The notes: generated by a model not told the origin, from the letters alone. Positions 9,185 through 48,326 are shown, counted from the first letter of the stretch. The stretch is DNA of 64,000 nucleotides from Negativicutes bacterium (GCA_963665275.2 CAXXIN010000007.1:512001-576000); one strand, 5' to 3'. Program-made: numbers and translations.

Positions 9185-9290
9185 CCATCACGCCCCCCTT
9201 ATCCTTTATTGCCCGACTGGGAGTTGTACTCGCTGATTCACCGTTAACCCACAGTCTCTAATGCATATCGCACATGGTTAATTTGGTTGA

Positions 9291-10331: not shown

Positions 10332-10642
10332 TCTCTTGACCTCCCGCTAATATTTCTCCCACTGGCAGCGAGATTCTTCACCAGAATAGCTCGATCAGAA
10401 ATTATCAGAAAAGCGAGATTCTTATTTGTATATTATTCCATCAGATAGAACACTATTTTCTCCATTCTCCTCATAATTATTATTTTCCGGATTGAGCCAT
10501 ACTTCGCCTAGCAACGTCCAGTTCCGAATGTCCCTTGACCACCTTGAAGGATTCCTGAGCTTAGTTCTTCGTATACTCAAACTCTTTGGAAAAATACCTG
10601 ATCCTGATGTCGAAACGTTTGTTTAATATGGGAGAAAAAATG

Positions 10643-11705
10643 CAGGATACTAGGGAGCCGCTGAACAATTGCTGATATTTGCCTCGCGTTCCCAATAATT
10701 CATCTTTTTTGTGAAGTTTTATAAGTTTCGTGCCCACATTTCCTGTTTCGTCCACCCTGCGACCCCAGTTGGGGCTTTGGGGGCAAACTAACCCCTTGCT
10801 GTTCTCAAATCGGCGCTGGCATTACTTTTTTCTCATCACCAACAGGTTGGACGAGGCAAACAACGTGTATAACCGTGATTCATTCTTCGCCAATCCCCTG
10901 TAACGCACTTTGCCGTATCCAAAAACATTCTTGATGGTTTGAAACGGGTGCTCCACGATGGCGCGAACTGAGGCTTTGGCATATTCCTCCGTCCACAGCA
11001 GTTCTTTCTCCAGTCCTTCGGCCATTTTCTTGAAGATCCCGCGCCGCTTGGCTACCAGCCAATGGATGTCTCGGTTCAGTTCTCGTCGATCCCGATATAC
11101 CCTGCGTCCGCCAAGACGAGGTCTTCCTTGCCGTGTAATAACTCGGCGGTTTTGGCAATATCGGCCACATGAGCCGGTGCCGTCACCAGGGTATGGACCA
11201 AACCGCTCGCCGCATCGACGTCGATATGCGCTTTCATGCCGAAGTGCCTATTCGTTGCCTTTCTTCGTCTGGTGCATTTGTGGATCTCGCTCATGGCGCT
11301 CATTCTTTGTTGATCACGATGCTTCAATGGATGGTGTCATCGGGCACAGATTCGTGAGACAAGTCTATCCGACTGAATTTTCGCAGGGACTGGGAGTCAT
11401 AGACTGCGTCTTCCATGCCTTCATCAGACAGGTTGTACCACGCTTGCAGCAAATACAGTCGTAACATCTTTTCACAGCCGATCGGCGGGCGACCACGTTC
11501 TCCTTTGGGATAGATGTTTTTAGATTAAATCAGTGTTTCCCTAGGCAGAAAATCGAGGCTTGGGGGTTAGAGTATAATGATTGGCGACCGTACAGCTCTT
11601 TAGGCAACCAAACACCCAGTAGTTTCAGTGCCAAAGTCATGTCCGAGGCAATGTTAGAAAACGGTTTTCTAACATTTTTCCGGCCCAGTTTTAGGGGAAC
11701 ACTCA
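10643..11705 (+). mobile_element. IS3-family 3' remnant (transposase tail + right end), interrupted by the IS5 element
   Basis: Removing the IS5 restores QDTRQKIEAWGLEYNDWRPYSSLGNQTP, a typical IS3 OrfB C-terminus; right end ...ggcccagttttaggggaacactCA at 11705. Confidence 0.65.
10654..11540 (-). mobile_element. IS5-family element, internally deleted, with pseudogenised transposase
   Basis: Ends GGAAACACTGATTTAAT / GGAGCCGCTGAACAATT, CTAG on both sides (10650-10653, 11541-11544); fragments GRPP, FGMKAHI.VDA.SGLVH, ADAGY, RAIVEHPF..K..FGY.KVRYRGL. Confidence 0.88.
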
Positions 11706-31112: not shown

Positions 31113-31320
31113 TCCCTGTTGTCCCTTTCGGGAGGTCAATGTCGATGCGGCAGCATTCACTTTATGTTACAACCCGCCAAATTGTCTTGCTTGAAATCAA
31201 GCAACAACGCCTCAGAGCGCAGATTACGCCGTACTCTGGTTGCTGACTACGGGACTGGCCCTTCCTTTGTCCCGACAGGACTTTCACCTGCAAGCATCCA
31301 AAATCTTAGCTAATTATAAC
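31107..31320 (-). mobile_element. Group II intron 5' remnant (domain I)
   Basis: Minus strand agctaagattttgg..gcaggtgaaagtcctg..gtcagcaacc..gaggcgttg..gtaacataaagtgaatgctg resembles domain I of Firmicute group II introns; no RT ORF. Confidence 0.55.
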
Positions 31321-31421: not shown

Positions 31422-32564
31422 TCAATCCCTGTTGAATATATCAGTATAGGCCTTGTAAACAAATACTTTTTTCCGTTTGCGATTGTCCAGATTGCTTAAA
31501 ATCCCTTCCTCGCAAAGCCGTTCGAGCAAACGACCACTTGTGGCCGGACTGATGTCCAGTTTCGCGATCGCTTCTTCAATACTGACGGTCGGTTTATCAA
31601 ACAAGCCCTCGTATATCAGCATTGCATTTTCACTGGTTCTGCCCAGTGCATTGATCTTGCGCAAATCATTTTCGCGTAACCCTGTGATATCCCGCGCTAT
31701 TTCCACGGCCTCTTTTGCCGTTTCAATCACACCGGTTAAAAAGAACTTGATCCAGGTCTCATAGTCCCCTTTGATATGGATGTTTGAAAGGCAATCGTAA
31801 TAGGCCTGTTGGTTGCGTTTAATAAACTTGGAAATATACAGTGTAGGTTTGTGCAAAATATGATTTGCAGCCAGATAAAAAGCAATCAGCAACCTTCCGA
31901 TTCTGCCGTTACCGTCTAAAAACGGATGGATCATCTCAAATTGACTATGAATCAGCGCTGCTTTAACCAAGGGTGACATGCGGTCATTTTCATGCATAAA
32001 TTTTTCAAAAGTATCTAAGCATCCATTCAAATAGTCAACAGATGGCGGAACATAGCTGGCGGTGTTGATGGAGTATCCGCCGATCCAGTTTTGTGATCGT
32101 CGAAACTCACCTGGTGTTTTATTTTCGCCCCGTACGCCCGTCATTAGAATCGCATGGATTTCCCGGATCAATCGCAAGGAAAGCGGCAACGTTTCCAATC
32201 GCTCGAATCCATAGCTGGTTGCACTAATATAATTTTTGATTTCCTGAACGTCGTTAGGAACTTCATCAGCCATCCCTGCCTCAGCTTTAATCAAGTCGGA
32301 AAAAGTTGCTCTTGTTCCTTCGATTTGCGAAGACAACGCCGCCTCTTTTCTGGCGTACATATACACAAAGAAACTTGGCGAAATCAAGCTATCCGTAACT
32401 TCGTCCAGCCTACCAATATATCGGTTTGCCTCAGACAACAAATAAATCATTTCATCGTCATATTGAATAGTTGGGTTTTGTGGTGGCAGCTTGGCAGGAA
32501 TAAAAGAAAAGAATCCCGCCTCGCCACTTCCTTGTTTCATTTTTTTGCCTGCACGTGCATCCAT
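31422..32564 (-). CDS. fic: Fic-family protein with N-terminal inhibitory motif and C-terminal wHTH
   Basis: HPFLDGNGRIGR catalytic loop; SSQIEG (S/T)xxxE(G/N) motif. Confidence 0.92.
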   Translation of the reverse strand: MDARAGKKMKQGSGEAGFFSFIPAKLPPQNPTIQYDDEMIYLLSEANRYIGRLDEVTDSLISPSFFVYMYARKEAALSSQIEGTRATFSDLIKAEAGMADEVPNDVQEIKNYISATSYGFERLETLPLSLRLIREIHAILMTGVRGENKTPGEFRRSQNWIGGYSINTASYVPPSVDYLNGCLDTFEKFMHENDRMSPLVKAALIHSQFEMIHPFLDGNGRIGRLLIAFYLAANHILHKPTLYISKFIKRNQQAYYDCLSNIHIKGDYETWIKFFLTGVIETAKEAVEIARDITGLRENDLRKINALGRTSENAMLIYEGLFDKPTVSIEEAIAKLDISPATSGRLLERLCEEGILSNLDNRKRKKVFVYKAYTDIFNRD

Positions 32565-33620: not shown

Positions 33621-34958
33621 GATAGCGTACAATAAAGTTCGCAAAAGAGAATAGGAAAAACCATCGGCAACTCCGAAAAGGTAAGTGTCCAGCAAACCCA
33701 AAAGGAGTGTAGCGCCGATGGTTTACCAAAATTCTACCGTACCTTTTGAAAAAATGCTAATGAAATTTGTGGCAGACGACGATCCCATGCAGGAAATGCT
33801 CAAGTGGCTCTGCGAACGACTCATGGCAGCCGAAGTGGACGGCAAGCTGGAAGCCCAAAAATCAGAGCGAACCCAAACTCGCCAGGGATATCGCTCAGGT
33901 TATCGAGTCAGGCGATTTGACACGCGAATGGGGACAATGTATCTGATGGTGCCCAAGATCCGAAATGGCGGGTATATCCCATTCTTCCTGGAAGCCAGAA
34001 AACGATCCGAAGCCGCTTTGATGAACGTCATTCAGGAAGCCTATGTAAACGGCGTATCGACACGGAAAATCGACAAACTCACCAAAAGTTTGGGGATCGA
34101 CTCCATCTCCCGCAGTCAGGTTTCGGCCATCACCAAAGAATTAAATGAACAAGTTGAAGCCTTCCGCAATCGCCAGTTGGAAGAGATCTATCCGGTTCTA
34201 TGGGTGGATGCCCTGTATGAACGTATCCGCGATCACCATAGTGTTAAAAACATGGCGGTCCTGGTAGTTACAGGCATTAATTGCGACGGCAAACGCGATA
34301 TCCTGGCGATTGAACCGATGGTTGAGGAATCCGCCGCCACGTATACCCAACTGTTCGACAATCTCAAAGCCCGGGGAGTAAAAAAGGTCTGGTTGGTTGT
34401 ATCGGATGCGCATAAGGGGCTGGTCAAAGCCGTGAGGGAATCCTTCGTTGGTTGCGCCTGGCAACGCTGCAAAGTCCATTTCATGCGAAATATCTTGGCC
34501 CATATATCCAGCCGGGAAAAGAAAACCTTTGCGGAAAAACTCAAGCAAATCTGGCTCCAGCCTGACTATGACAGCGCCAAAAAATATGCGGCGTCTCTGA
34601 TGGACGATTATGAAACAAGATATCCGGAAGCGATTGCCACATTGGAAGACGGTCTGGAAGAATCGCTGCAGTTTTTCAGTTTCAATGAAATCGACTCGCG
34701 AAAAATCTCATCCACTAATCTGTTGGAACGGCTAAACAAGGAAATCCGGCGTCGAACAAAGGTGGTCGGTATCTTCCCGAGTATGGATTCCTATGTTCGC
34801 CTAGTAACCAGTTACTTGATTGAATACAGCGAGGATTGGTCTAGCGGGCGATCTTATATTCATCCCATGATCATTACAGAGATCCAGCAAAAACTCGATG
34901 CGGCTGCTTAACCAAGCTGAAGTGCCGATGATTTTTGCGAACATTATTTGACACTATC
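33621..34958 (+). mobile_element. Complete IS256-family element
   Basis: IRs GATAGCGTACAATAAAGTTCGCAAAA / GATAGTGTCAAATAATGTTCGCAAAA; 8-bp duplication TGGCAGCG at 33613-33620 and 34959-34966. Confidence 0.93.
33685..34911 (+). CDS. IS256 DDE transposase
   Basis: GVSTRK, LWVDA, VVSDAHKGL, WQRCKVHF, STNLLERLNKEIRRR. Confidence 0.95.
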   Translation: MSSKPKRSVAPMVYQNSTVPFEKMLMKFVADDDPMQEMLKWLCERLMAAEVDGKLEAQKSERTQTRQGYRSGYRVRRFDTRMGTMYLMVPKIRNGGYIPFFLEARKRSEAALMNVIQEAYVNGVSTRKIDKLTKSLGIDSISRSQVSAITKELNEQVEAFRNRQLEEIYPVLWVDALYERIRDHHSVKNMAVLVVTGINCDGKRDILAIEPMVEESAATYTQLFDNLKARGVKKVWLVVSDAHKGLVKAVRESFVGCAWQRCKVHFMRNILAHISSREKKTFAEKLKQIWLQPDYDSAKKYAASLMDDYETRYPEAIATLEDGLEESLQFFSFNEIDSRKISSTNLLERLNKEIRRRTKVVGIFPSMDSYVRLVTSYLIEYSEDWSSGRSYIHPMIITEIQQKLDAAA

Positions 34959-35002: not shown

Positions 35003-35948
35003 TTACGCGCCGCCCCAGAGTTCACTCGCCGGCCAATATCCGGCTTGACTGATAGTCTGCTTTCGTTCCGTAATAATTTCATCCACCGCAAGTCTTGGTA
35101 CTGGGTCTTTAACATCGTAGACGTTTCTCCACTCAAGCGCTTTTTCGATCCATACCCTTGTCCGGTTCTTTTTCCTGTCATACATTGTCACAATTCTGTT
35201 AAGGCGATCCAGCTCTTTTTTATTGAGGTAATTTTTTGCCACCGTAATATCGCTTTTCAAAATCTTTCCGGCAGGAGATGCTTTCCAGTTAGTTAGTCCC
35301 ATTGTCGGGTGTGCGCTGGAGGCTCTATCATGAATTATTTCCGCCGCAGTTTTTCCGGTTATGGCAAAGTGCATTTTATTCTGGACAAAAGCATAGAATG
35401 CCTTCGTTTCCTCTGAACCCGAATTATAATCGCTACTGCACTGTTCAAAGACATCGGCAATTTTCTGGTAAGCCCTACGTTCAGAAGCCCTGATCTCCCT
35501 AATGCGCTCTAACAGCTCATCAAAATAATCCTTGCCAAATGGTCTTCCGTTTTTCAGCATCTCATCATTCAATACAAATCCTTTTAAAATGTACTCCTTT
35601 AATGTTTGAGTTGCCCATATTCTAAACTGAGTAGCCTTTATCGAATTCACCTGGTAGCCGACTGCAATAATGGCATCAAGGTTATAAAATTCGACATTGC
35701 GTTTTATATTTCTTTCGCCTTCGTTTTGAACTGTTTCCATAACGGAAACAGTTGCATTTTTTCAAGTTCACCGGATTCATAGATATTTTTAAGATGCTTA
35801 GAAATGGCGGCTTTCTGAACATCGAACAGTTCTCCCATAGCTTTTTGTGTCAACCAAAAATTTTCATCAGCAAAAAAAAACACATGACTTTTACTTTGCC
35901 TTCATCAGTTTGATAAAGTATTATTTTATTTTTTTAATGTTTTATCCA
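35003..35948 (-). pseudogene. rhuM: RhuM (virulence RhuM family) gene, 5' frameshifted and 3' replaced by unrelated sequence
   Basis: WLTQKAMGELF..ISKHLKNIYESGEL upstream out of frame; YNLDAIIAVGYQVNS..ATQFRIWAT, DYFDELLERIREIRASERR; homology stops at RIVTMY (~35180). Confidence 0.8.
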
Positions 35949-35968: not shown

Positions 35969-36988
35969 CTATCCAAGGAAAACATTCTCATTGTGCCATT
36001 CAAGATATTGTGGATCGGGAAGTTGATCTTTTCGTTCCGGCAAAATAATCAATTTGCTGCCATGATGCGCATAGTATTCTTTGCCGTTGCCGAAAACCTC
36101 TTTTATCCGATGACTAACTTCTACGATGAGATTCTTGTCAACGGTAATATAGCCCCTGTCAAAAAGAGTGTGAAAATCACTTCTGAGAAGTAGTCCATTG
36201 CTGATTTTATGTGGCCCCTCCAGACCGTATGGCTTAATATGTGCAGCCTCTAAAACCGGCAAGGTTTTCTCTCCGGTGATTGCACATTTACGTTGATATG
36301 CGTCCGTTATCAAAACCTTGAATGCTCCCTGCCCAATTCTTGGCTTAATGATCTGTTCCTTTCCGTAACGGTTTTCAGCACTTTCCCCCACAGCCCATGG
36401 TTGCATCAATCTTTGCAATTTAAGCTTGTCTTGTACCTGCTCATAAAGCGTCATCCCGATCATTTCTCGCGTATCATACGTTTTACCTTGAACTATGTTG
36501 CGATTCCAATTTTGTGGAACCGGAATCCAGTCCTCTTCATCAAAATAAAATGGCGTGGATAGAATAATACATCCGATGTACGGGTCGGGATCAGATAAAC
36601 GATTCGTTTTTTTGTATTTGTAAATTCGATTGTTAAGTTCCATAAGATTTATAGCGCCATTTGCAATGCCAAATGCCTCCCATGCTAAGGAAGATGGCAA
36701 AATTGAAAACTTCAGAAAGAGCCCTCCGCCCACAATGTAATCCTTGGGGCTATGAAGCTTGAACAAAAAAAGGTCGCCTTCAGCCAGAGCCAAAAAATTG
36801 GTACGGCCTCCCGGCTTCCAAAAATTCACTTCGTCGCAGTTCGCCTGCTTTATAGTTTTAAACCAGTCAAAATCTGTGACCCCGACATACATCTTCACAG
36901 GCATCCGCGTCCTTATCCCAAATTCAAAACTTACCATTTGAGCGGCGGAATTATTCATCACAAGCCGTAATCCGCTATTAACAATCAA
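35969..36988 (-). CDS. HNH endonuclease with N-terminal putative reader domain (candidate modification-dependent nuclease)
   Basis: C-terminal CAITG..LEAAHIKP..NGLLLRSDFHTLFDRGY; N-terminal YVGVTDFDWF..EVNFWKP..FLFKLH. Confidence 0.85.
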   Translation of the reverse strand: MIVNSGLRLVMNNSAAQMVSFEFGIRTRMPVKMYVGVTDFDWFKTIKQANCDEVNFWKPGGRTNFLALAEGDLFLFKLHSPKDYIVGGGLFLKFSILPSSLAWEAFGIANGAINLMELNNRIYKYKKTNRLSDPDPYIGCIILSTPFYFDEEDWIPVPQNWNRNIVQGKTYDTREMIGMTLYEQVQDKLKLQRLMQPWAVGESAENRYGKEQIIKPRIGQGAFKVLITDAYQRKCAITGEKTLPVLEAAHIKPYGLEGPHKISNGLLLRSDFHTLFDRGYITVDKNLIVEVSHRIKEVFGNGKEYYAHHGSKLIILPERKDQLPDPQYLEWHNENVFLG

Positions 36989-37083
36989 ATCCAGTAATTT
37001 CTTCCCTCTGTAAAATCGGTATGCGAAGCATCCCTGAATAAGAGAAACAATACTATATTTTTCTTAAAACAAGGCACCGTTTC

Positions 37084-38136
37084 TTAGTCAAAAAGATGTT
37101 GCGCTTCACAAGCTTCTAAAAAAGGCTTCTTTAAAAAATTGGTATCCGTATTCGGATAACTTTGAGCAAAGCTCAATATTGATTGTAACAACTCATGGGG
37201 AGACAGTTTACCATGAAAATCATTAACCTGAGTAATCCAATCTTTGGCTTCGGCACTACAGCACTTTTCCTTAAAACGTTCTTCAATATCAAATAATTCA
37301 TCCCAAGTTCGAATCTCTGCCGATAAACGGGGTGGCCCTAATGCTATGTTTATATCATGCGGAGCTAAGTGTTCTATATCAGCCGAATTAAGTTGCAAAT
37401 TAATATCCAGCTTGTATGAAGTTGAATTATAGGCGTAGAACGCTTTCCGTCGATTGCCACTTCTATCATGAAGCGGGTCTTTTGCCTGCTTATACATACT
37501 GTTACACTTATTGCATGCTGGAGCCAAGTTTCTAAAATTAATCGACGAAAAAGGGTATTTGCTTTTGGGCAAGTAATGATCATACGCTTCGCGCATCTTA
37601 GAGTACTCACCTTCAATATCACTCAAACCACAAAAAGGGCACTTTCCAAGTTTATTAACGGTCACGAACTGATGATAATGCTCGCCAATCACTCCAATTT
37701 TTTCTGCTACCGTTCGCAAAGTAAGAAAATCCTTTGCATATAGCGGTTCAAAAAATCGTTTTAATGCTCGCCCCAAAGTTGCATGCTGAATATTTATCTC
37801 TGCATATGTTATCGGAACACAGGAAGGATTATTATGGCACAGGTCTTCAATATCATTATTCGATTGATACCAACCTTGTAACTGACTCAGGGAAAACGGC
37901 TTAGGATCTTTAAAGATTAAAAATATCTCTTGTATCCCTTTGATGAAAAAATCTGCACCTTTGGGCTCGGTATGGTAAAAATCAACGATCAGTTCTTTTA
38001 GATCAGGCTTGCCATTAAATAGTGAAATGTCATAATCGCATCCTGGAGCCTTACACCAAACCTGATAAAAAATATAATCAATATACTCCTGCATTTTTTC
38101 CACGGAGTGATTAATATATTTGTAAGGAAATAGCAT
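37084..38136 (-). CDS. HNH nuclease (PtuB-like) partner of the ATPase
   Basis: CPFCG..YDHYLPKSKYP..NLAPACNKCN; start overlaps ATPase stop (TAATG). Confidence 0.8.
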   Translation of the reverse strand: MLFPYKYINHSVEKMQEYIDYIFYQVWCKAPGCDYDISLFNGKPDLKELIVDFYHTEPKGADFFIKGIQEIFLIFKDPKPFSLSQLQGWYQSNNDIEDLCHNNPSCVPITYAEINIQHATLGRALKRFFEPLYAKDFLTLRTVAEKIGVIGEHYHQFVTVNKLGKCPFCGLSDIEGEYSKMREAYDHYLPKSKYPFSSINFRNLAPACNKCNSMYKQAKDPLHDRSGNRRKAFYAYNSTSYKLDINLQLNSADIEHLAPHDINIALGPPRLSAEIRTWDELFDIEERFKEKCCSAEAKDWITQVNDFHGKLSPHELLQSILSFAQSYPNTDTNFLKKPFLEACEAQHLFD

Positions 38137-39854
38137 TATGTGTCCTCCATGCTATCCAGCACTCTTTTCACGAATAGTATCTTCTCAACCGAATCGCCGA
38201 GCAAAGAATTAACTTCTTCAATCAATTCTTGCTTAGGCGCGCCTACCTCAAACCGTTTTTTAATTTCATCAAGTTGCTTTTCGGCGTAGCCGCCAATAGT
38301 TTCAGTCTTGCCAAAAGATGTCATCGTAATTTTGTTGATCGATGCACCCAAAGTATTGTAATCTGGTCGCCGAACCTCTACCGTCTTCATCCTGAAATTT
38401 TTATTAAATAATAGAACATACTCCTTGCGACTATCTGAAATTAAAAAGGGAGAATGAGTTGTAATCAACATTTCGCGCATCGTGTTCTGAGCTTTTCCCT
38501 CACTAAAACACTCGCGCAGCCTTGTGATAAATTTTGCCCGCCAATCTGGGTCGAAGTGGGTTTCAGGCTCATCCATGAGAAAGAGGCAGTTTTCATCTTT
38601 ATATAAAAGACATAATCCTAACGAATGAATAAATTGATGTTCGCCATCAGAAAGCGATTTCGTATAAATCACGCCCTCTATTTCGCCCTTATCAAGCATA
38701 AATTCTTTGATCCGAAAAACACTTTCTTCATTCAAAGAAATCGCAGTCATATCTTGCTTTAAATATATATTTTTCGACTTATAAATGTGTGCTCGGGTTT
38801 CCAAATCAATCACACAATAATTAAGTGTATGTAGTATTTGGAATGCCTGAAATAAATTTAATGGATAACTTTGGAAATGATATTGGAAAGCTTCTTTGGT
38901 TGCTTCATCAACACAAAAATCCAAAATACGAAATTTCGCCATGCCGTCATCGCCATAAATGGTATGTTGAGCAGTAGAACAGTTTTCTAATCGGTCCATT
39001 GTAGTTTTAAGCTTTAAAGTAAGTTCTCTACGAATCTTATTGGGGTCAAGTTTTTCGTTTTCCGTCATTGCTTCAAAAACATCGTCATGAATTATCTCAT
39101 AGCGATGTTTGTTAATAATTAGCCGGAATTCTTTTACTGCTTTAAGGCCTAATTCTTTCTCAAACGGATACAACACGTCTTTGGGTTGCAAAAGAAGATT
39201 GCTCAATAAAATAGCTTGGCTAAGCTGCTCATCAAGATAAATCAACCTTCCCTCCGGGGTTTGTCCGTAATAATCATCCCGTATCAACAAGTCTCTATAC
39301 TCATCAAAGTGAATAAATCTCATTTTGAAAAAAGGCACACTCAAAATTTCATTCTCGCCCGAAGAATACGCCATAATATATTTGGGTAATAGCTGTTTTG
39401 CGGTTTTTTTATCGAGCGCTTCACTGTAGTCAGTCGCTTCGTTTTGGTTAAGCCAAAACATAGCCGGCGGCTTGCTCAATCTTTTTTCGATGCGAACTTG
39501 CGCAATATTGAGCTTGGATTCACTCCTCAAAGAATCTGGCACAGGAATAAAGTACTCCAGTTCAAAAGCATCAGGAGTACTTACTTCTTCTCGAAATCCG
39601 CCTGGATTTTTTTCTTCATCATAGCGAAAATTATCCGGTCGATACTGCAAATACATACATTCAATATGATAAAAGATCGCCGCTAATGCTTCTAATACAT
39701 TAGACTTCCCACTTCCATTCGGTCCCGCCAAAATGTACGGATTGAATTCGCCTGCCTCCGCATAGTTCCAGTCACGCAGAAAATAAACCTCAAAACCCGC
39801 TTGTAAGCTTCTGAAGCCAGTGGGATCGGTTATTTTCAAGCGTAATAGTTTCAT
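38136..39854 (-). CDS. Restriction-system-associated ABC-type ATPase (PtuA-like)
   Basis: Walker A GPNGSGKS, signature LSDGEHQ, Walker B LMDEPETH, H-loop ITTHSP; ATGA overlap with hsdS. Confidence 0.88.
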   Translation of the reverse strand: MKLLRLKITDPTGFRSLQAGFEVYFLRDWNYAEAGEFNPYILAGPNGSGKSNVLEALAAIFYHIECMYLQYRPDNFRYDEEKNPGGFREEVSTPDAFELEYFIPVPDSLRSESKLNIAQVRIEKRLSKPPAMFWLNQNEATDYSEALDKKTAKQLLPKYIMAYSSGENEILSVPFFKMRFIHFDEYRDLLIRDDYYGQTPEGRLIYLDEQLSQAILLSNLLLQPKDVLYPFEKELGLKAVKEFRLIINKHRYEIIHDDVFEAMTENEKLDPNKIRRELTLKLKTTMDRLENCSTAQHTIYGDDGMAKFRILDFCVDEATKEAFQYHFQSYPLNLFQAFQILHTLNYCVIDLETRAHIYKSKNIYLKQDMTAISLNEESVFRIKEFMLDKGEIEGVIYTKSLSDGEHQFIHSLGLCLLYKDENCLFLMDEPETHFDPDWRAKFITRLRECFSEGKAQNTMREMLITTHSPFLISDSRKEYVLLFNKNFRMKTVEVRRPDYNTLGASINKITMTSFGKTETIGGYAEKQLDEIKKRFEVGAPKQELIEEVNSLLGDSVEKILFVKRVLDSMEDT

Positions 39855-41389
39855 TTTTTGCGCCTCATAACCATCATTTTTTTCTCTTTGTCAAAAAGCT
39901 GCACCAACTGAGGATTTTCTCCACTAAGCATTTCAAAGAGTGTCCTTTTCACGTCTTCATATTGGGGCAGTTCGTCAAATGCGGCGGTTTCAATCTTGGA
40001 CCACAATTCGTCAAATGAAAAAGTTTTCTCACTCGTTGTATCGATAAGATTTTTCAAAGCTTCCACTGAATATTTCCGAGAACTCGTCACTTCTGCATTC
40101 GACGGATTCATGGAAAATTTTATGGGATCATTGTGATTAAGCACCTCGTCTGGTACCATCTCTTGAATAGGAACCCGACTCAAATCCAATTCGCCTTTAA
40201 ATGCCCGCTGACTGAGCGAAGCATAAAGGGCCTCCAATCCGGTGAGACTTTCAGTATATCTTGTTTTAAGAGCTTCGACTTTTTCTACAATGTCGGCAAA
40301 TTGATTTTGGAGTGTTCGTTCTGGACTTAATACTTCAAACAAAAGAATATCTTGTTGATTGATACTCGACTGATTTACTGCATTTTTCGCTCTACGTTTT
40401 ATTTGGGCTTTAATATATTCTGTTCTCCACAAGAACATCAAAAAAACTGGTGTTAATAATTTTGGGTTTAAATGGAATTTCATCATGTTTGATTCGTAGA
40501 CAATATCCTCTGAAATATCTGGCACGATACCTATTTTCCCAAGATACTCCATGCTATTAACGCGGTTGATTAATATATCATCTTTTTTCACTGCATATTG
40601 GTCAATTTCGATTTGGGTCAACGTTACTCTTTTTAGTTTTTCAATAAATTCAACATAACCATCATAAAATGAATCTATCCGAATAATTTTTGTTCCGCTT
40701 CCATACATAGATTGATGCTTATACAAGCCATTTTGCGGGAAGATATTTAAACAATCACCTAATCTTTTCTTTTCCCATCCCTTCTCATTCCGCACCGGAT
40801 CGCCAAACATCTCAATAAAAGTACTTTTCAAGAATTCATCCACCAACCTGATGCTCTCTTTTCGTTTGGCAATCAGCGTTTCCGCTCGGGTGAGAACATT
40901 GGCAATGCGAATTTGGTCGTCGAGGTTCTCGGGGAGAGGAATTTGTGTTGACTCTATAAATTGACGGGATATTCCTCCAACAGTTGCGCCACGAAAGTCA
41001 TTAAGTATCTGTTTTTTACCCTCTGACGATCTCAAGAAAAAATAAACATATTTTGCAAAACCTTTTTTTTGATCAATAGCAATACGAAATACATGTTCAT
41101 TAATAGCCGCTTTAGCATAGGGAAATGAATTTCCAACGAAAGATACCTTCCCTGTAGTTGCACCATCTTTTACGATCAAAATATCATTGCATTTTATTTT
41201 TCCCGTTTTCAATCTGCAAAAAAAACTGACTGTAATAAATTTATTTTTATGGAAGTTAAACTTTCCATCTTCTGATAAGTGCTCCGCGCCCAGACTAGGT
41301 ATTGTCCCTGTTTCAGATGAAACACCGCCTTGAGGCCTGGCACCAGATTCCAATTCTTTTACAAGACCAGCAAGTTTAACTACTCTCAT
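39851..41389 (-). CDS. hsdS: Type I RM specificity subunit with ~110-aa C-terminal extension
   Basis: Two TRDs, IPLP..DDQIRIA, F.EMFGDP..N.KGW, LQNQFA..QRAFKGEL, then extra domain. Confidence 0.9.
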   Translation of the reverse strand: MRVVKLAGLVKELESGARPQGGVSSETGTIPSLGAEHLSEDGKFNFHKNKFITVSFFCRLKTGKIKCNDILIVKDGATTGKVSFVGNSFPYAKAAINEHVFRIAIDQKKGFAKYVYFFLRSSEGKKQILNDFRGATVGGISRQFIESTQIPLPENLDDQIRIANVLTRAETLIAKRKESIRLVDEFLKSTFIEMFGDPVRNEKGWEKKRLGDCLNIFPQNGLYKHQSMYGSGTKIIRIDSFYDGYVEFIEKLKRVTLTQIEIDQYAVKKDDILINRVNSMEYLGKIGIVPDISEDIVYESNMMKFHLNPKLLTPVFLMFLWRTEYIKAQIKRRAKNAVNQSSINQQDILLFEVLSPERTLQNQFADIVEKVEALKTRYTESLTGLEALYASLSQRAFKGELDLSRVPIQEMVPDEVLNHNDPIKFSMNPSNAEVTSSRKYSVEALKNLIDTTSEKTFSFDELWSKIETAAFDELPQYEDVKRTLFEMLSGENPQLVQLFDKEKKMMVMRRKK

Positions 41390-43017
41390 CCCAGCATTTC
41401 CTCAAGTTCATTCATTTCTTTACTAATTTCATCTTCCAAAGTCTTGAGCTTGGCCAGAATCACTGTGGGCTTTTCATACACAACTTCTTCGAAAACATCC
41501 TCTTTATACTTGCTCATCGAAAGATCATAGTTTTGTGCCACAATCTCCTTTTGGGGCACAAAGAAAAACTTCGCCTTGCGATCGCTTGCTTTGTGCGGAT
41601 CACGGCTCTTATACTGCGTTACGATATCCTGCAGGTCGCCATATCCCTCCTGCTTTGCGCGCTTGTCATCCAGACTGCGGCCATCACTCTTCATGTCGTA
41701 GAACCAGACATTTTCCGTTTCACCGCCCTTGGTGAAGATCAGAATGGCGGTACTTACTCCGGCGTAGGGTTTGAAAACGCCGCTCGGCATTGCAATGACG
41801 GCTTTAAGTTCACATTTTGTGACGAGTATTTTCCGGGCTTCAACGAAGGCTTTGCCGCTACCGAACAAAACGCCCTGCGGTACGATCACGCCCGCAGTCC
41901 CTCCCATTTTCAGCAAGTTGTAGATGTTCTCCACGAACAGCAGTTCAGTTTTCGTAGTCTCCAGTTCCAGTGATTCATTGATATCGCCTTTGTCGATACT
42001 GCCGGTGAACGGCGGATTGGCCATCACGATCTGATACTTATTGACCTCTGCAAAGCCTTTGCTTAAGGTATCCTGGTAATCAATGTGCGGCGTGTCCACG
42101 CCATGCATCATTAGGTTCATCAGCGCCAGTCGGACCATCGTCACATCGATATCGTAGCCGTAAAGGCTGTCATTCAAAATATCACTAACATCTTTGGTCA
42201 AAAGACTACTCACCGAATTACGGATAAAGCCGTCTTCATCCGGTTGAAGATTCTTCTTGTTCTTGTCGAGTTGAGTCACTATATATTGATAAGCGCCCAA
42301 TAAAAAACCGCCGGTCCCGCAGGCCGGATCGGCAATTTGATGACCCAATTGAGGTTCGACCAGTTCCGCAATGAGCTTGATGATATGACGCGGCGTCCGA
42401 AACTGCCCATTCTTCCCAGCGCTGGCGATTTCGGAGAGAAGCATTTCATAGACATCTCCCTGAATATCTTGAAACGCCTGCCCACCTTCGTTGGCATCTC
42501 GTTCAATTTCCGCAAAAATCTCTTCAATGGTAGACATCGCTTCTGACAGCAATGTCGGTTTAGGAATAATGAAGACGGCGTTTTTCATATGATGCGTAAA
42601 TGAAGATTCATCCCCGTTGAGCGTTTTCAAGAAAGGGAAGACTCTTATCTGCACATGCAGAAGCCTTTCCTCTGGCGGCATGTGACTAAACTGGCTCCAG
42701 CGGAGAGTCTGCTTATCGACCCGGAACGGAGCTTCCTTCTCGTCTTTTTCTTTTTTTGCTTCGTCCAACGGTTTTGTTTCATCCAGTTTGAAAACATGCT
42801 CGGGCGGTACCCAATATCCCTCGAATTTTGACGTATAAGTCTCGTCGGCAAAATCTGCATCAGCGATTCTTTTGAGGTCCAGGTCATCCAAGCGCTTCAT
42901 AAACAAAAGGTATGTTATCTGCTCAATCGCCGTCAATGGGTTGGAAATGCCACCGCTCCAGAATTTATCCCAGAGGGAAGCAATTTTGCTTTTCAGTACC
43001 GGGTTATTTTGTAACAA
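41386..43017 (-). CDS. hsdM: Type I RM m6A methyltransferase
   Basis: GQFRTPRHI, DPACGTGGFL, ANPPF, FKPYAGV. Confidence 0.95.
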   Translation of the reverse strand: MLQNNPVLKSKIASLWDKFWSGGISNPLTAIEQITYLLFMKRLDDLDLKRIADADFADETYTSKFEGYWVPPEHVFKLDETKPLDEAKKEKDEKEAPFRVDKQTLRWSQFSHMPPEERLLHVQIRVFPFLKTLNGDESSFTHHMKNAVFIIPKPTLLSEAMSTIEEIFAEIERDANEGGQAFQDIQGDVYEMLLSEIASAGKNGQFRTPRHIIKLIAELVEPQLGHQIADPACGTGGFLLGAYQYIVTQLDKNKKNLQPDEDGFIRNSVSSLLTKDVSDILNDSLYGYDIDVTMVRLALMNLMMHGVDTPHIDYQDTLSKGFAEVNKYQIVMANPPFTGSIDKGDINESLELETTKTELLFVENIYNLLKMGGTAGVIVPQGVLFGSGKAFVEARKILVTKCELKAVIAMPSGVFKPYAGVSTAILIFTKGGETENVWFYDMKSDGRSLDDKRAKQEGYGDLQDIVTQYKSRDPHKASDRKAKFFFVPQKEIVAQNYDLSMSKYKEDVFEEVVYEKPTVILAKLKTLEDEISKEMNELEEMLG

Positions 43018-43018
43018 G

Positions 43019-45817
43019 TTATGCTGCCACCTTTTTCGTCAATTCCAAAATTTCGTCGATTTCTTTCGGCGTGAATAAACCGCGGATTCCCTGCGGGTGC
43101 AATATTGTAAACGGGGATTCAATTAAATCCCGTTTCTGCACAGTCTCTTTGTCCAAAATAAATTCTTTCAGCAGATTCAAAAAGTCCAACTGCCGTGAGC
43201 TCAGATTCGTATGGCTGCGGATAAACTGATCAAAGGCTTTGGTGACCGTAGCCGGGAAACTCTCCAGGATTTCCAGACCCAATATGTGCCGGATGAATTG
43301 AAGCAAGGTTGCTTTCCGATTCTGATACACCGTCTTGAGCAACTCTTCGGTAATATGAGGATGTTCCTCGTGCAAGAGAGCCGCCAGGCTCTCCGCCTCT
43401 GCTTCGCTAATGGCTTTGCCTTCTTTGATCTTTTGCAGCACCGGATTGCTTTCCGTCAGTTCCGTGATCAGTCTTTCTACCATCTCGCGGTACTGGGAAA
43501 CACTCACCGTCGAATGTTCCGGTCCAAACTCCACGAACTCCTTGGTTTTCAACAAGTCGACAAAATCAAACTGCGCCGGTCCCGACGTTTGATGATCATT
43601 ATCCCGATATTTCATCAAGGCAGATATCTTTTCGGCCAGTTCATCAAAGGTCGCATCGGTTGCCTTGGCCCAAAAGCTATGGGTCTGAGCCGCCCGAATG
43701 ATGACCTCTTCCTTGGCGACAATATTCACGGACAGCGGCAGTTCTCCCACCACTTCGATAATATTATCCTTCAGCGTATCGTATTTTCTTTTGTCCTCCG
43801 CCAATTTCGCCAAGGATGCTTCCAGCAGATCTTTTTGAAAGCGCATCGCCTTAAAATCAGTTTGCGAAACCGTCCGAAACAACGGTTTGATGTAATCCCG
43901 CAAAAACTCGAGTTTTTCATGCGTCAGCCTTGTCCAGAAATTATCATCCGCTAGCTTTTGCAATTCCGTGGCGGCCCCTTGAATCACTACCGAATTTTGT
44001 GGGAGTTCTTCGATCTGTTGCCGGAGCTTGCGAATCTCTTTTGCGGCAATGGCATCGTTTTGCGTGTCGATTGCTGTTTCAATTTTATCGAGCCTGATTC
44101 CGATGAAACGCACTGGGAGTGGGATTTGCGGAAGGGTGTCTTTCCCTTCGGGGTGCAGTTTAAAATACTCAAAGTTGTCCCAGCAGTCTAGGATTAGGAA
44201 CCGGTCTTTTGTCGTGCACCAAGGCTTTATCTTGTGCGATTCCAACAGGCGCGTGCCGCGACCGATCATCTGCCAGAACTTTGTATAGGAAAATACCGGT
44301 TTCGCAAATACCAGGTTCACCAGTTCCCGAATATCAATGCCGGTATCCAGCATATCGACACTGAGGGCAATTCTCGGCAGGTCATTATGCGTGAACTGAT
44401 TCAGCAGCCCGCCCTTGCCATAGACACGGGGGTCATCGGAAACAAGTACTTTCGCCAATTCCCCGTGATACTCCGGGTATAGAGAATCGAAAATCTTTTC
44501 GATTCTTCGCGCGTGAGCCTTGGACGAACAGAAAAATATTGTTTTCCCCGGAAGAACCCCGTTGGAATCTTTGATAGATTCTTCCATGAACTCTTTGACG
44601 ATGAGCGCATTGGTGCCCTTATTGGTAACCGTTTTTTCCAGTTCAGTACCTTCAAAATTAATCTCTTCGACTTCTTTGCCTGCCAGGATCAACCGTTTTT
44701 GATCTTCTAGCGAGATCGTTCGTTTGCTGATTCCTTCATCCTGAAACTTGGTGTGTATCTTCATCACCTGAAAGTTGCACAAGTAAGGCGGCGCGTGGTT
44801 TACAGCTTCCGCGTACGTGTAGGCAAAGCTGGGCAGGCCATCGTCACAATGAAAGAGTTTGAAGGTGTTGTGGTCGATAATATCGGTCGGTGTCGCCGTG
44901 AGTCCGAGACTAAGTGCCTGGAAATAGTCCAGCACTTCGCCATAAGTGTTGTATATGGAGCGATGGCTTTCATCGATCACAATCAAATCAAAAAAGTGCG
45001 GAGAAAGAGTGTTGTCCTCTTCTCTGATAATATTGAGCATGGTGGGATAGGTGGAAACATAGATCCGGCGATCTTTGGCAACGAGTTTTTCGCCAACCTT
45101 CGGCCATAGGGGCTCGTTGGGCAAGTGTTCTTTGAAAGCGGTTAGCGCCTGTTCACGCAAGGCGATTCTATCCACCAGGAACAATACCCTCTCAACATGA
45201 CCCGCGCGCATAAGCGCATCAATCAGCGCAATGCATGTTCTGGTTTTTCCTGTCCCGGTAGCCATCACCAGCAAAAAACTGCGTTTTTTCTTCTCGATCC
45301 CTTCCATGACGGAACGAATGGCGCGAAGCTGATAATCTCGCCCGGCAATTTCTGTGTTAATCAATTCCTCAGCCAGATGCTTTCGATGCTCGCGAATATA
45401 TTGAAACCGCTCTAAGTCATCTCGAGTGGGATAGCCTACCACTTTTCGGGGAGGATAATGTTCCAAGTCCCAAAAATAAATCTCATGACCATTGGTGTAA
45501 AAACAGAACGGCAGTTTGGAACCATATTGTTTTTGAATGTTGTAGCAATACTGCTTCGCCTGTTCCCGCCCGACGGCAGCATCTTTCGCAGTCTTCTTTG
45601 CTTCGACAACCGCCAGCGGTTTTGCGTCTCGTCCCAATAAAACGTAGTCGCTATATTGATGACCGGCATAAGGAGATCGTTCCTCAGCAACCCGATCTAG
45701 GAACGGCACAGAAATATCAAACTCTTTGACAACTTGCGCCAGGTTATTTACATCCCAGCCCGCAGCAAAAAGCTTGGCGTCAATATGTTCTTTTCGCGTT
45801 TGGGCTTCAGATGTCAT
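43019..45817 (-). CDS. hsdR: Type I RM restriction subunit (EcoEI/EcoAI-like C-terminus)
   Basis: DYVL..VVEAKK nuclease motif, MATGTGKT, DESH, LTATP, QMIGRGTR; likely start MTSEAQ at 45817. Confidence 0.93.
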   Translation of the reverse strand: MTSEAQTRKEHIDAKLFAAGWDVNNLAQVVKEFDISVPFLDRVAEERSPYAGHQYSDYVLLGRDAKPLAVVEAKKTAKDAAVGREQAKQYCYNIQKQYGSKLPFCFYTNGHEIYFWDLEHYPPRKVVGYPTRDDLERFQYIREHRKHLAEELINTEIAGRDYQLRAIRSVMEGIEKKKRSFLLVMATGTGKTRTCIALIDALMRAGHVERVLFLVDRIALREQALTAFKEHLPNEPLWPKVGEKLVAKDRRIYVSTYPTMLNIIREEDNTLSPHFFDLIVIDESHRSIYNTYGEVLDYFQALSLGLTATPTDIIDHNTFKLFHCDDGLPSFAYTYAEAVNHAPPYLCNFQVMKIHTKFQDEGISKRTISLEDQKRLILAGKEVEEINFEGTELEKTVTNKGTNALIVKEFMEESIKDSNGVLPGKTIFFCSSKAHARRIEKIFDSLYPEYHGELAKVLVSDDPRVYGKGGLLNQFTHNDLPRIALSVDMLDTGIDIRELVNLVFAKPVFSYTKFWQMIGRGTRLLESHKIKPWCTTKDRFLILDCWDNFEYFKLHPEGKDTLPQIPLPVRFIGIRLDKIETAIDTQNDAIAAKEIRKLRQQIEELPQNSVVIQGAATELQKLADDNFWTRLTHEKLEFLRDYIKPLFRTVSQTDFKAMRFQKDLLEASLAKLAEDKRKYDTLKDNIIEVVGELPLSVNIVAKEEVIIRAAQTHSFWAKATDATFDELAEKISALMKYRDNDHQTSGPAQFDFVDLLKTKEFVEFGPEHSTVSVSQYREMVERLITELTESNPVLQKIKEGKAISEAEAESLAALLHEEHPHITEELLKTVYQNRKATLLQFIRHILGLEILESFPATVTKAFDQFIRSHTNLSSRQLDFLNLLKEFILDKETVQKRDLIESPFTILHPQGIRGLFTPKEIDEILELTKKVAA

Positions 45818-46024
45818 TGATTGTCCTTTCCGCAAAGAAATGCTGCCGATATTGTTGTCGGCAGTTCCCTGCATGCAATTTTATGGCCCCTGTCAATTCT
45901 ATTGATTACACAACTGACTTAAATAGTGTATTGCTTAATCAAGTTTTATTCCACATCTTTTGATAATTCCCCTTCTTGTTAGTTGTTATTGGGAAGGCAT
46001 CTTGCAACAAAGTTCGGATTTCAT

Positions 46025-46341: not shown

Positions 46342-47550
46342 TCAAATCAGTTCATGTAACGCATCTGCAATTTCTTCAAATGAAACAACAGTGAACAATT
46401 CCCATATAATCCTGTCGTTTCTCTTGTTAAATAGTTCCGCGCTCAAGCTGTCGATTCCGGCAAAGTTAAGCTTTAAAACTTCACGAACGTCTTTAATCTT
46501 TTTCCCACGTTCAGGTCCATATATTGCGCCAAAATTCAGCCTGTCGATCAGATCCTGCATTTCTCGAAATCGCTTAATTTTGTTGTCACCCTGAAAAATA
46601 TAATTGGCCAAAAGTTCCAAATGGCATCCAGCAATTGCCCACTGAGCCTTATCGCGTCTAACACTATTCCGAAGATATAACGATTGAAAGTCGTTCGCCC
46701 TTTGCAGCAGCTCGTCGTCGTTTTCAATATTTTGAACCTGGCGAATCAACAGTTTCATGTCTGCGAAGAGCAAGTCGGGATCATATGAAATATCATGTAT
46801 TGTGCACTCAAATTCAGCTGCCTTTTTATAGTTTGCCAGTACGAACTCCTTATTATCAATAATTCGATCCATATTGAAACTAAACAAAGTAATCACGTCA
46901 TAAATCTGCTTAAACTGTTCATCTGCTCTCTCGGCAGGAACTCCTATCGTATTAGGCCCGAGTGTAGTTAATTTGTCAGCGAACAGCATTTCCAATGTCA
47001 ATAAATTAAATTCTTTTTCAGTCTCTAGCGCGAACAAACTGTTTGGCTTAACTTTTTGCCATTGATATTCCTGCGCTGAAAATAAAAATTCAATTTTTAC
47101 TTCCTGTTTTCCGTTTTGGGCATATAGGTCTGCCCTATTACAAATAGTTGGAACTGTAACAAAATATGTTTCCAGCTCACCCAGTCCAAGTTTGGGATGT
47201 TTGGGCTTGTAGAGTCTGAATTTGCAATACTCTCCGTCGCCCTGAAGATCCGCTTCCACTTCTGCAAGGGCAGCATGCACATCTTCACGGGTTGCCAAGC
47301 TAATCATGTCAATATCTATGCTGGTTCTTTGGGTTGCAGCGGGAATGTAGAACTGCGTTGCCGCACCGCCTTTCAGCATGATTTTCTCTCCAAGCTTTTT
47401 TTGCAGCTGCAAGAACATCTCCAAATCCCAGATAAAAAGTTCAAACTTAGCTTTTGAATTGAATCCGCCATCTGTCATACGCTTTTCTATCTCGCTTTTT
47501 TCAAAAACCGTCGGTCCTAAGATGAGATTTTCTTGTTTTATCCCCTCCAT
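46342..47550 (-). CDS. AbiEii-family nucleotidyltransferase toxin
   Basis: LKGGAATQF..QRTSIDID, ADKL, KQIYD. Confidence 0.8.
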   Translation of the reverse strand: MEGIKQENLILGPTVFEKSEIEKRMTDGGFNSKAKFELFIWDLEMFLQLQKKLGEKIMLKGGAATQFYIPAATQRTSIDIDMISLATREDVHAALAEVEADLQGDGEYCKFRLYKPKHPKLGLGELETYFVTVPTICNRADLYAQNGKQEVKIEFLFSAQEYQWQKVKPNSLFALETEKEFNLLTLEMLFADKLTTLGPNTIGVPAERADEQFKQIYDVITLFSFNMDRIIDNKEFVLANYKKAAEFECTIHDISYDPDLLFADMKLLIRQVQNIENDDELLQRANDFQSLYLRNSVRRDKAQWAIAGCHLELLANYIFQGDNKIKRFREMQDLIDRLNFGAIYGPERGKKIKDVREVLKLNFAGIDSLSAELFNKRNDRIIWELFTVVSFEEIADALHELI

Positions 47551-48326
47551 GGCTCCTCCTTCAATTGATACCTCATGAATTCCAATGTTTTTTCTGGCAA
47601 CCTATTCAATTCTATAAGCCAATTGATTTCCCTGACGATTCCTCTATCTTTTGCAGAAATCTTCATTTTTTCCATTGCAACAGTTTTGTTTCTGCGCAAA
47701 CTTTGATAGATTCGTGACAGTTCAGGAATAGCAATACCATAGCCCATCCTAGTTACTGAGTAATATAGATCGACAAATCCCTTTTCTTTCCGGGCTATAT
47801 GCTCCTTTGACAGCGAAAAGTCCTTCCCTGTAAATAGCACAACGTCAACTTGATCAATATTTATTGTTTTGCCTATGATGTTTCTTTCTTTTTCGGTTAG
47901 CGCCATTAGTAGCTTTTCCTTCAGTATTCCTTGTATTTCGTTTATCCCGCTTTCCTCAGCTACTATCAAGGTTGGATACTTTTCTGGCACATGCAAAATT
48001 TCACCAACCAAAGCATCCAAGCCAGAGATATAAAAATTGTATCCGTAGTCTATAAGAGTATCGTAAATTACCTGTGACTGCTTTTGCATGTAATTATATC
48101 CCATCGCATTATGTTCCTTGACCCCAGTCAGGGCATAGTACCCATGCCCCGTTTTATAAAGTTTCCCGCGCTGAACCAATTCATATAGTCGCCAAGAAAT
48201 AGTTTTTTTGTTGATATCCGGATACAGTGAATATATTGTTCTAACATCTATTTCGTTGCCACTTTCCATGTGTCTTGAAAGTTCATTATAAAATTTCTCT
48301 TCAATTGACACGTTATTCGAATCCAC
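47538..48326 (-). CDS. AbiEi-like antitoxin/regulator (N-terminal wHTH)
   Basis: TISWRLYELVQRGKLYKTGHGYYAL wHTH, EKGFVDLY; overlaps the toxin start. Confidence 0.7.
   Translation of the reverse strand: MDSNNVSIEEKFYNELSRHMESGNEIDVRTIYSLYPDINKKTISWRLYELVQRGKLYKTGHGYYALTGVKEHNAMGYNYMQKQSQVIYDTLIDYGYNFYISGLDALVGEILHVPEKYPTLIVAEESGINEIQGILKEKLLMALTEKERNIIGKTINIDQVDVVLFTGKDFSLSKEHIARKEKGFVDLYYSVTRMGYGIAIPELSRIYQSLRRNKTVAMEKMKISAKDRGIVREINWLIELNRLPEKTLEFMRYQLKEEPWRG

Follow-up and report, generated by a model that had tools for sequence, protein, structure and literature searches.

A PtuAB-like ATPase-HNH pair embedded in a type I restriction-modification operon and very probably working with its HsdS-containing complex

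How bacteria notice that a phage is disarming their restriction enzymes is a long-standing question, and few cases have been worked out, namely PrrC, PARIS and Ronin. PrrC, which resides in EcoprrI, is reported to be activated when the T4 protein Stp blocks restriction (PMC12707154) and is described as lying almost exclusively inside type I loci (Payne 2024). In Ronin, the toxin RonA is reported to be kept in check by HsdMS up to the appearance of ArdA or Ocr (bioRxiv 10.1101/2023.04.06.535777). BREX is reported to recruit OLD-ABC/HNH dyads as back-up effectors (PMC12839542), a retron to co-opt PtuAB via elements that PtuA acquired for partner binding (PMC12819146), and both Septu Ec-B88 and Retron-Eco7 to cleave tRNA-Tyr (PMC13096335). 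Here, we describe a 64,000-nucleotide stretch of DNA from a Negativicutes bacterium (GCA_963665275.2, CAXXIN010000007.1:512001-576000; hereafter the window) in which a type I restriction-modification (RM) operon is continued, without interruption, by genes for an ABC ATPase and an HNH protein related to PtuA and PtuB, and we present the evidence that this pair is tied to the specificity subunit HsdS.

The five genes are arranged head to tail, all on the minus strand. The first, hsdR (43019..45874, 951 aa), encodes a type I restriction subunit related to the EcoAI/type IB group and is followed by hsdM (41386..43017, 543 aa), encoding the N6-adenine methyltransferase subunit, and by hsdS (39851..41389, 512 aa), encoding a specificity subunit with a C-terminal extension of ~110 aa. 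Next come the gene for the ABC ATPase (38136..39854, 572 aa), a PtuA-like member of family TIGR04435, and that for the HNH protein (37084..38136, 350 aa), a putative PtuB-like nuclease with an enlarged helical N-terminal part. An earlier note on this DNA, made from the sequence alone, had described these genes as tightly coupled, and the junctions read directly in the sequence agree with it: hsdR and hsdM are separated by a 1-bp gap (TAA-C-TTG), hsdM overlaps hsdS by 4 bp (ATGA), hsdS overlaps the ATPase gene in the same manner (ATGA, 4 bp), and the ATPase and HNH genes overlap by 1 bp (TAATG). The TTG start codon of hsdM has the sequence AAGGTGG 12 nt before it. Scans for promoters (27 promoter-like sites versus 27.8 expected) and terminators (8 terminator-like sites versus 12.7 expected) were uninformative.

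The association of the pair with hsd genes was examined in the neighborhoods of ATPase homologs. In a first clade, obtained by scanning one genome per species, 317 ATPase relatives were found, the best 80 of which (42-66% identity, many phyla) were inspected. The hsdS gene was present upstream of the ATPase gene in 79 of these 80 genome loci, the 80th having only 219 bp of upstream DNA; 76 of the 79 had hsdS within 54 bp, two apparent gaps proved to be split open reading frames (ORFs), and one was accounted for by a rhuM insertion. An HNH homolog was found downstream of the ATPase gene in 78 loci, the other two ending at a contig edge. Since the same order recurs in 79 of 80 related loci, the gene order is far beyond chance. 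Of the 80 loci, 73 contain hsdM and 59 contain hsdR. Among the 21 in which hsdR is missing, 18 offer less than 1 kb of sequence before their first hsd gene; in the other three (L005, L076 and L077), with at least 6.7 kb upstream, hsdR is truly absent, which amounts to three of the 62 loci with room for it. Locus L077 displays, at 7204-12751, an integrase gene followed by hsdS, the ATPase gene and the HNH gene, with neither hsdM nor hsdR in the 21.7-kb locus and with housekeeping genes (encoding SecA and an Omp85-like protein) upstream. In L005 (5217-6790), an AbiEii gene lies directly upstream of hsdM, itself preceded by a 218-aa ORF without a Pfam family.

A second clade was collected in a metagenome scan seeded with the fused clade described below, yielding at least 574 relatives, of which the best 80 were inspected. 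Here, hsdS was adjacent to the ATPase gene in 58 loci and fused to it in four, which together make up 62 of the 63 loci offering 1 kb or more of room; the remainder comprised 17 loci without room and one rearranged locus, L162, the only exception to hsdS adjacency or fusion where there was room. The HNH gene was adjacent to the ATPase gene in 74 of the 80 loci. As hsdM may stand before or after the S-ATPase-HNH trio in this distant clade, it is the trio that forms the conserved core. None of the 160 related loci retained from the two scans (the top 80 of 317 and the top 80 of at least 574) contained a free-standing ATPase/HNH pair. The earlier note had named homologs occurring mostly without hsd genes as the pattern that would speak against its reading, and for the ATPase family the neighborhoods display the opposite. 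Among the metagenome loci, the order hsdS-ATPase-HNH-hsdM was frequent, being seen in L086, L102, L103, L106, L107, L111, L116, L146 and L155, and a 1221-aa ORF in L112 was labeled as hsdR plus ATPase by profiles alone.

Natural fusions join the two proteins covalently. Forty long proteins (1004-1146 aa) match the ATPase at E values of 1e-20 or lower, and 39 of them are annotated Methylase_S. HsdS was N-terminal and the ATPase C-terminal in all six fusions checked for domain order, and the nine that were inspected display a basic, proline-rich linker of ~50-100 residues between the HsdS core and the start of the ATPase. The unfused HsdS of the window, for its part, continues for ~110 residues beyond the point where the specificity models stop. 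Its last 85 residues (39854..40108, minus strand), which we propose to be a docking module for the ATPase, match no Pfam family; they can be aligned in 28 systems, in which one Tyr is invariant and one Gln is conserved at a level of at least 90%. A profile built from this tail gave exactly one match, at the 3′ end of hsdS, in each of five genomes carrying the system, three of which were outside the alignment. In 401 genomes of the phylum, the profile recovered the window's own copy (3.7e-25) and two other, marginal matches outside any hsdS (8.5e-4 and 6.7e-3), the number that chance would give at the threshold used. Among the 58 unfused HsdS proteins of the distant clade, 48 carry the tail at their very C-terminal end, and it was detected in none of the 40 HsdS-ATPase fusions. 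When the divergence of HsdR and HsdM was held constant, that of the tail correlated with that of the ATPase (partial r 0.41; permutation maximum 0.15), and the same control applied to the HNH protein gave a partial r of 0.05. Collectively, these observations point to a tail that mediates contact between HsdS and the ATPase. From hsdS linkage, natural fusions and the system-specific HsdS tail, it appears that the pair does not simply neighbor the restriction system but is tied to it, as the earlier note had surmised, and that it very probably works physically with the HsdS-containing complex.

The ATPase matches the NCBIfam family TIGR04435, "restriction system-associated AAA family ATPase", with 714.3 bits (cut-off 300), residues 1-570 of the protein covering positions 1-568 of the 568-position profile, and it has the context of that family, being located inside a restriction operon directly after hsdS. 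The protein ends at 572 aa with no additional domain. Its Pfam matches are AAA_21 and AAA_15, and its best PADLOC model is PtuA PDLC00293 (1.6e-50, residues 1-534), followed at a distance by weak matches to AriA models (8.9e-16) and by PDC-M01A (6.9e-14); PADLOC figures are given here as profile scores, apart from PADLOC's own thresholds and system rules. A profile of 15 ATPase homologs searched against the PDB returned PtuA chains first (3e-9, C-terminal third only) and AriA next (1.3e-3). The AlphaFold2 (AF2) model of the ATPase is of moderate confidence (mean predicted local distance difference test score, pLDDT, of 68.7), and Foldseek retrieved with it PtuA chains at the top (2e-9), then SMC/Rad50 heads. 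The NCBIfam PtuA model NF041760, built for the retron-linked subfamily, gave 43.5 bits and thus did not reach its cut-off of 500.

The 350-aa HNH protein has no Pfam match at threshold. It displays an invariant CxxC...DH...N...CxxCN motif, and its AF2 model is confident (pLDDT 91). Comparison of this model with 48,161 chains using VIA-align placed four PtuB chains at the top, 8ee7_C (Z 8.8, 195 residues aligned), 9kjx_F (8.6), 9n6b_F (8.3) and 9e8z_E (7.5), with 181-202 residues aligned across the whole model and the next match at Z 4.5. Foldseek found nothing significant with the same model, its best hit being PtuB 9n69_F at an E value of 2.4, and a sequence profile of the HNH family searched against the PDB returned nothing relevant (best E 0.42). 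The best PADLOC matches of the protein are PDC-M01B (8.5e-16) and PtuB (5.4e-9); on TIGR02646, also built for the retron-linked subfamily, it scored 17.6 bits and did not reach the cut-off of 52.15. The pair is therefore a distant relative of PtuAB, in line with the Septu-like architecture that the earlier note had recognized: the PtuA model is matched at the E value given above, PtuA is the closest solved structure to the ATPase, and PtuB is the sole clear fold match of its partner. In genome annotation, the HNH partner is still called a "hypothetical protein" in RefSeq, as on plasmid NZ_CP083584.1 (L166, 6295-22169), where hsdS too is listed only as a short hypothetical protein.

The restriction subunits are readily recognized. 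HsdR matches Pfam ResIII (3.8e-41), EcoEI_R_C (2.3e-27) and HSDR_N (4e-9) as well as PADLOC REase_I (2e-158), and reaches 273 bits on the NCBIfam EcoAI/FtnUII family, below the cut-off of 550; HsdM matches Pfam N6_Mtase (3e-60) and HsdM_N (9.5e-16) and PADLOC MTase_I (2e-168); and HsdS matches Pfam Methylase_S in two stretches (8e-20) and PADLOC Specificity_I (2.8e-91), the latter match ending at residue 401. The features expected of a type I RM system are thus present, with nuclease and superfamily 2 (SF2) motor motifs in HsdR, NPPF in HsdM and two Methylase_S stretches in HsdS. Motif conservation was assessed in 52 systems (51 loci plus the window), in all of which the following were invariant: the HsdR nuclease residues D76, E91 and K93 and helicase motifs GTGKT and DESH; the HsdM NPPF; the ATPase Walker A (GxNGSGKS), signature (SDGExQ), Walker B (DEPETH) and H-loop (H467); and residues C166, C169, D186, H187, N203, C208, C211 and N212 of the HNH protein. 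The type I enzyme is therefore predicted to be complete and active. Invariance of the HsdR nuclease residues in 52 of 52 systems also rules out the HNH protein as a stand-in for a dead HsdR nuclease; judging from these conserved residues, selection keeps both nucleases.

Pairwise identity matrices of the five proteins were compared in the same 52 systems. Mean pairwise identities were 0.70 for HsdR, 0.67 for HsdM, 0.50 for the ATPase, 0.40 for the HNH protein and 0.28 for HsdS, and the matrices correlated with r values of 0.48-0.90 (permutation maximum ≤0.18). As related sequences inflate r, the correlations are taken to indicate co-inheritance only. The distribution of the family is patchy: one of 401 sampled genomes of the window's phylum, its own, carries a member over the cut-off, the family is present in two of 72,556 plasmid records, and no ATPase match was found in 50,697 phage records. 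A conserved sixth gene was considered and rejected, the largest neighbor cluster occurring in only seven of 80 loci. This commonest extra neighbor is a Schlafen AlbA_2/HATPase_c_4 gene (e.g., L075:14688-16361), five copies of which interrupt the hsdR-hsdM stretch; owing to inserted DNA, hsdR and hsdM lie 346-4109 bp apart in about half of the loci.

What the pair may do for its host can be approached by analogy. In the reading that we favor, and to which we would give an even chance, the five genes would constitute a single defense unit, a type I RM enzyme with a Septu-type effector pair attached to HsdS, in which the pair would be a latent back-up effector carried by the methyltransferase core and set in action when restriction is blocked. 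The HsdS tail would dock the ATPase, and the M2S core, with or without HsdR, would serve as sensor and scaffold, in parallel to the reverse transcriptase (RT)-msDNA (multicopy single-stranded DNA) complex holding PtuAB in Retron-Eco7. The HNH protein would remain latent while the restriction complex works normally and, once the complex is jammed, would be switched on by way of the ATPase binding or hydrolyzing ATP; one instance of jamming would be the lodging of a DNA-mimic anti-restriction protein in the DNA groove of HsdS/HsdM. It would then cut host or phage nucleic acid, either tRNA, as do Septu Ec-B88 and Retron-Eco7, or DNA, and the outcome would be an abortive back-up for failed restriction. 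The favored reading owes its place to four analogies, with PrrC, with Ronin, with retron-held PtuAB, and with the cleavage of tRNA-Tyr by Septu Ec-B88 and Retron-Eco7. More tentative, somewhat short of an even chance, is the specific proposal that the type I methyltransferase core acts as the phage sensor for PtuAB docked on it by the HsdS tail or by covalent fusion, such that occupation of the groove by a DNA mimic or by unmodified target DNA, relayed via the ATPase, unleashes the HNH protein. Three of 62 loci with room lack hsdR while keeping the rest, and a sensor based on HsdM and HsdS would permit such loci.

Several points weigh against the favored reading. The tail was undetectable in 10 of the 58 unfused HsdS proteins of the distant clade, and the evidence for contact between tail and ATPase (co-occurrence, absence from fusions and a mirror-tree signal among related sequences) is in each case indirect. 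The structural model of the ATPase is of no more than moderate confidence (pLDDT 68.7). A mode of activation in which HsdS lets go of the ATPase is incompatible with covalent fusion. Finally, HsdR with intact nuclease residues is present in 59 of the 62 loci with room, which would be equally compatible with a cooperating DNA nuclease. We infer, rather than observe, that the RM complex restrains or triggers the pair and that the signal comes from anti-restriction proteins; a second DNA nuclease targeted by HsdS would fit the data about as well.

In that second-nuclease alternative, which we consider doubtful as a whole, the pair would ride the M2S core to unmethylated recognition sites and nick or cut DNA there, a cleavage mode dispensing with HsdR translocation and collision and conferring direct immunity instead of abortive defense. 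HNH domains are typically DNases, the fusions and the tail tie the pair physically to the subunit that reads DNA sequence, and three loci keep hsdM and/or hsdS with the pair in the absence of hsdR. PtuAB of retron Ec78 has moreover been reported to target plasmid DNA as well as tRNA-Tyr (PMC12819146). Yet the nuclease and motor motifs of HsdR are kept in 52 of 52 systems, which would make a further DNA nuclease redundant in most of them, and in vivo the substrate of the characterized relatives Septu Ec-B88 and Retron-Eco7 is tRNA-Tyr.

It is improbable that the pair is an autonomous Septu-type system sharing only the promoter of the RM operon and making no contact with HsdS, after the manner of TgvAB in the type I cluster of Vibrio VPI-2. 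Independently acting embedded genes have been documented, such as TgvAB (PMC11411939) and the HEC systems (Payne 2024), and canonical Septu is reported to work alone. Such autonomy is nonetheless hard to square with 40 HsdS-ATPase fusions and with an adjacency to hsdS that has almost no exceptions across two divergent clades (79 of 80 loci, and 62 of 63 with room); the tail domain, in addition, occurs only with the module, and the 160 loci kept from the best matches of the two scans held no free-standing copy. Least probable of all is an addiction or quality-control module that would kill or arrest cells losing the methyltransferase core, or would regulate restriction (restriction alleviation), instead of sensing phage: toxin-like nucleases held in check by a partner make a common stabilizing device, the pair seems to be docked to the M2S core (fusions, tail), and a patchy distribution (one of 401 phylum genomes, yet many phyla) suits a mobile selfish unit, but the operon sits in a defense island with AbiE, SoFic, RhuM and an HNH_2 enzyme, all characterized relatives (Septu, retron PtuAB, PrrC and PARIS) are anti-phage, and the family is rare on plasmids (2 of 72,556 records).

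The defense island extends from ~29.7 to 48.4 kb of the window, flanked by genes for a DcuC transporter and for a molybdopterin oxidoreductase, and contains, besides the operon, SoFic, AbiEii/AbiEi, RhuM, the HNH_2 enzyme and a group II intron remnant. The AbiEii/AbiEi pair (46342-48326, minus strand) lies directly upstream of hsdR. SoFic (31422-32564; PADLOC 2.9e-119) adjoins a match to the Rfam group II intron D1-D4 model (31162-31293, minus strand; 67.5 bits, gathering score 49). The 1.8 kb surrounding this match contains no ORF of at least 120 aa, and hence no RT; the match probably represents what is left of an intron, at the island's edge and 6 kb from the module. None of the 17 ORFs scanned from 24.1 to 50.8 kb proved to encode an RT, so that the earlier note's statement that no retron is present here stands; a search of the region for a retron, an RT or a structured RNA yielded nothing else than the D1-D4 remnant devoid of an RT ORF.

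Downstream of the five-gene unit, after a 95-bp gap, a second HNH gene is found at 35969-36988 (minus strand). Its product matches Pfam HNH_2 (7.8e-14) and the PADLOC 'HNH' model PDLC04132 (2.8e-20), reaches only 77 of 180 bits on a model of phosphorothioate-DNA restriction, and has as its closest solved chain 6yex_A (6.4e-8, HNH part only), which we take to be an EVE-HNH modification-dependent enzyme. These matches make a stand-alone type IV restriction enzyme probable, and translation may actually begin at an internal ATG near 36892-36904. Further on, the RhuM ORF (35003-35740, minus strand) matches the middle of the RhuM/PDC-S05 models only, its last ~58 residues being unrelated, and an IS256-family (Transposase_mut) transposase gene (33685-34911, plus strand) lies just beyond it; the ORF is likely a rhuM remnant cut by the IS256-family insertion. 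The second HNH gene did not recur beside the module in any of 80 related genome loci. Genes resembling rhuM accompany the module in six of the 80, at varying positions: between hsdM and hsdS (L040), between hsdR and hsdM (L050), between hsdS and the ATPase gene (L079), and after the HNH gene (L013, L034 and L035). The earlier note thus placed both genes correctly after the operon, but their membership in the unit is not borne out by recurrence; they are unrelated neighbors.

The arrangement is already on record in part, and the earlier note, which knew of no mechanism described for it, overstated its novelty. The association with RM is stated in the curated name of NCBIfam family TIGR04435, PADLOC holds PtuA, PtuB and PDC-M01 models that match the two proteins, and embedded defenses and back-up ABC-nuclease dyads have been published (Payne 2024; PMC12839542), as have PrrC, Ronin and the BREX dyads. 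No experimental or structural work on an RM-linked pair of the TIGR04435 type, and no paper with the terms 'TIGR04435', 'restriction system-associated AAA' or 'restrict_AAA_1', emerged from a literature search whose coverage did not extend to Krishnan et al. 2020 (ABC ATPases) or to the Payne 2024 supplements. As far as our searches show, the HsdS tail domain and its absence from the fusions have apparently not been described before. The five-gene layout is widespread and catalogued. Its family, with relatives in at least 317 species genomes and at least 574 metagenome stretches from many phyla, offers experimental handles in the form of a candidate docking domain on HsdS, fusions that fix stoichiometry, and two separable nucleases with known catalytic residues. 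If the tie to HsdS is true, PtuAB would have been captured at least twice by different sensors, a retron and a restriction enzyme. If the methyltransferase core is indeed the sensor, this would be the third independent deployment of PtuAB, after stand-alone Septu and retron-held PtuAB, and a widespread PrrC-like guard built from unrelated parts.

Several systems catalogued or described to date resemble the pair in some respects and differ from it in others. PDC-M01, a catalogued untested candidate of PADLOC, consists of an ATPase plus partner from genes embedded in RM, BREX or DISARM, and is not named in the main text of the 'guilt by embedding' study (Payne 2024; 0 occurrences). The HNH protein finds its best PADLOC match in PDC-M01B (8.5e-16), whereas the ATPase scores far better on the PtuA model (1.6e-50) than on PDC-M01A (6.9e-14). 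In PARIS, the ABC ATPase AriA likewise gates a nuclease and is reported to respond to Ocr, but the AriA matches to our ATPase are weaker, and PARIS is a free-standing system with a TOPRIM effector, AriB, that senses Ocr directly, in place of the HNH partner present here. Septu (structures 8EE4, 8EE7 and 8EEA; Septu Ec-B88) shares with the pair the succession of an ABC ATPase and an HNH nuclease encoded by translationally coupled genes, and PtuA and PtuB are the closest solved structures to both proteins. Identity in structural alignments is nevertheless 10-16%, the HNH protein described here is ~120-140 aa longer, the cut-offs of NF041760 and TIGR02646 are missed even though the PADLOC PtuA and PtuB models match, and Septu is a stand-alone two-gene system whereas the present pair, in the inspected loci with room, is always behind or fused to hsdS (L162 excepted).

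Retron-Eco7/Ec78 (type I-A) offers a parallel in that a second system is reported to have taken over PtuAB, which it would restrain and for which it would do the sensing. In the present operon HsdS takes the place of RT-msDNA as partner, neither an RT nor a retron non-coding RNA was found in the region, and the docking element appears to be on the HsdS tail, instead of or besides the ATPase. PrrC (EcoprrI, type IC) resembles the pair as a nuclease regulated by an ABC ATPase within a type I operon and is reported to be latent until restriction is blocked; it is, however, one polypeptide with an anticodon-nuclease domain, encoded between hsd genes, as opposed to two proteins encoded after hsdS, and PrrC models were absent from the best 25 of 95 and the best 25 of 41 PADLOC families for the two proteins. 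Ronin, finally, shares the idea of an HsdMS core that would keep a toxic effector sequestered until binding by ArdA, Ocr or Aop1. Ronin has no hsdR, and its effector, RonA, is a small membrane protein of 61 aa, whereas the operon type described here relies on an ATPase-HNH pair and retains an intact HsdR in 59 of the 62 loci with room.

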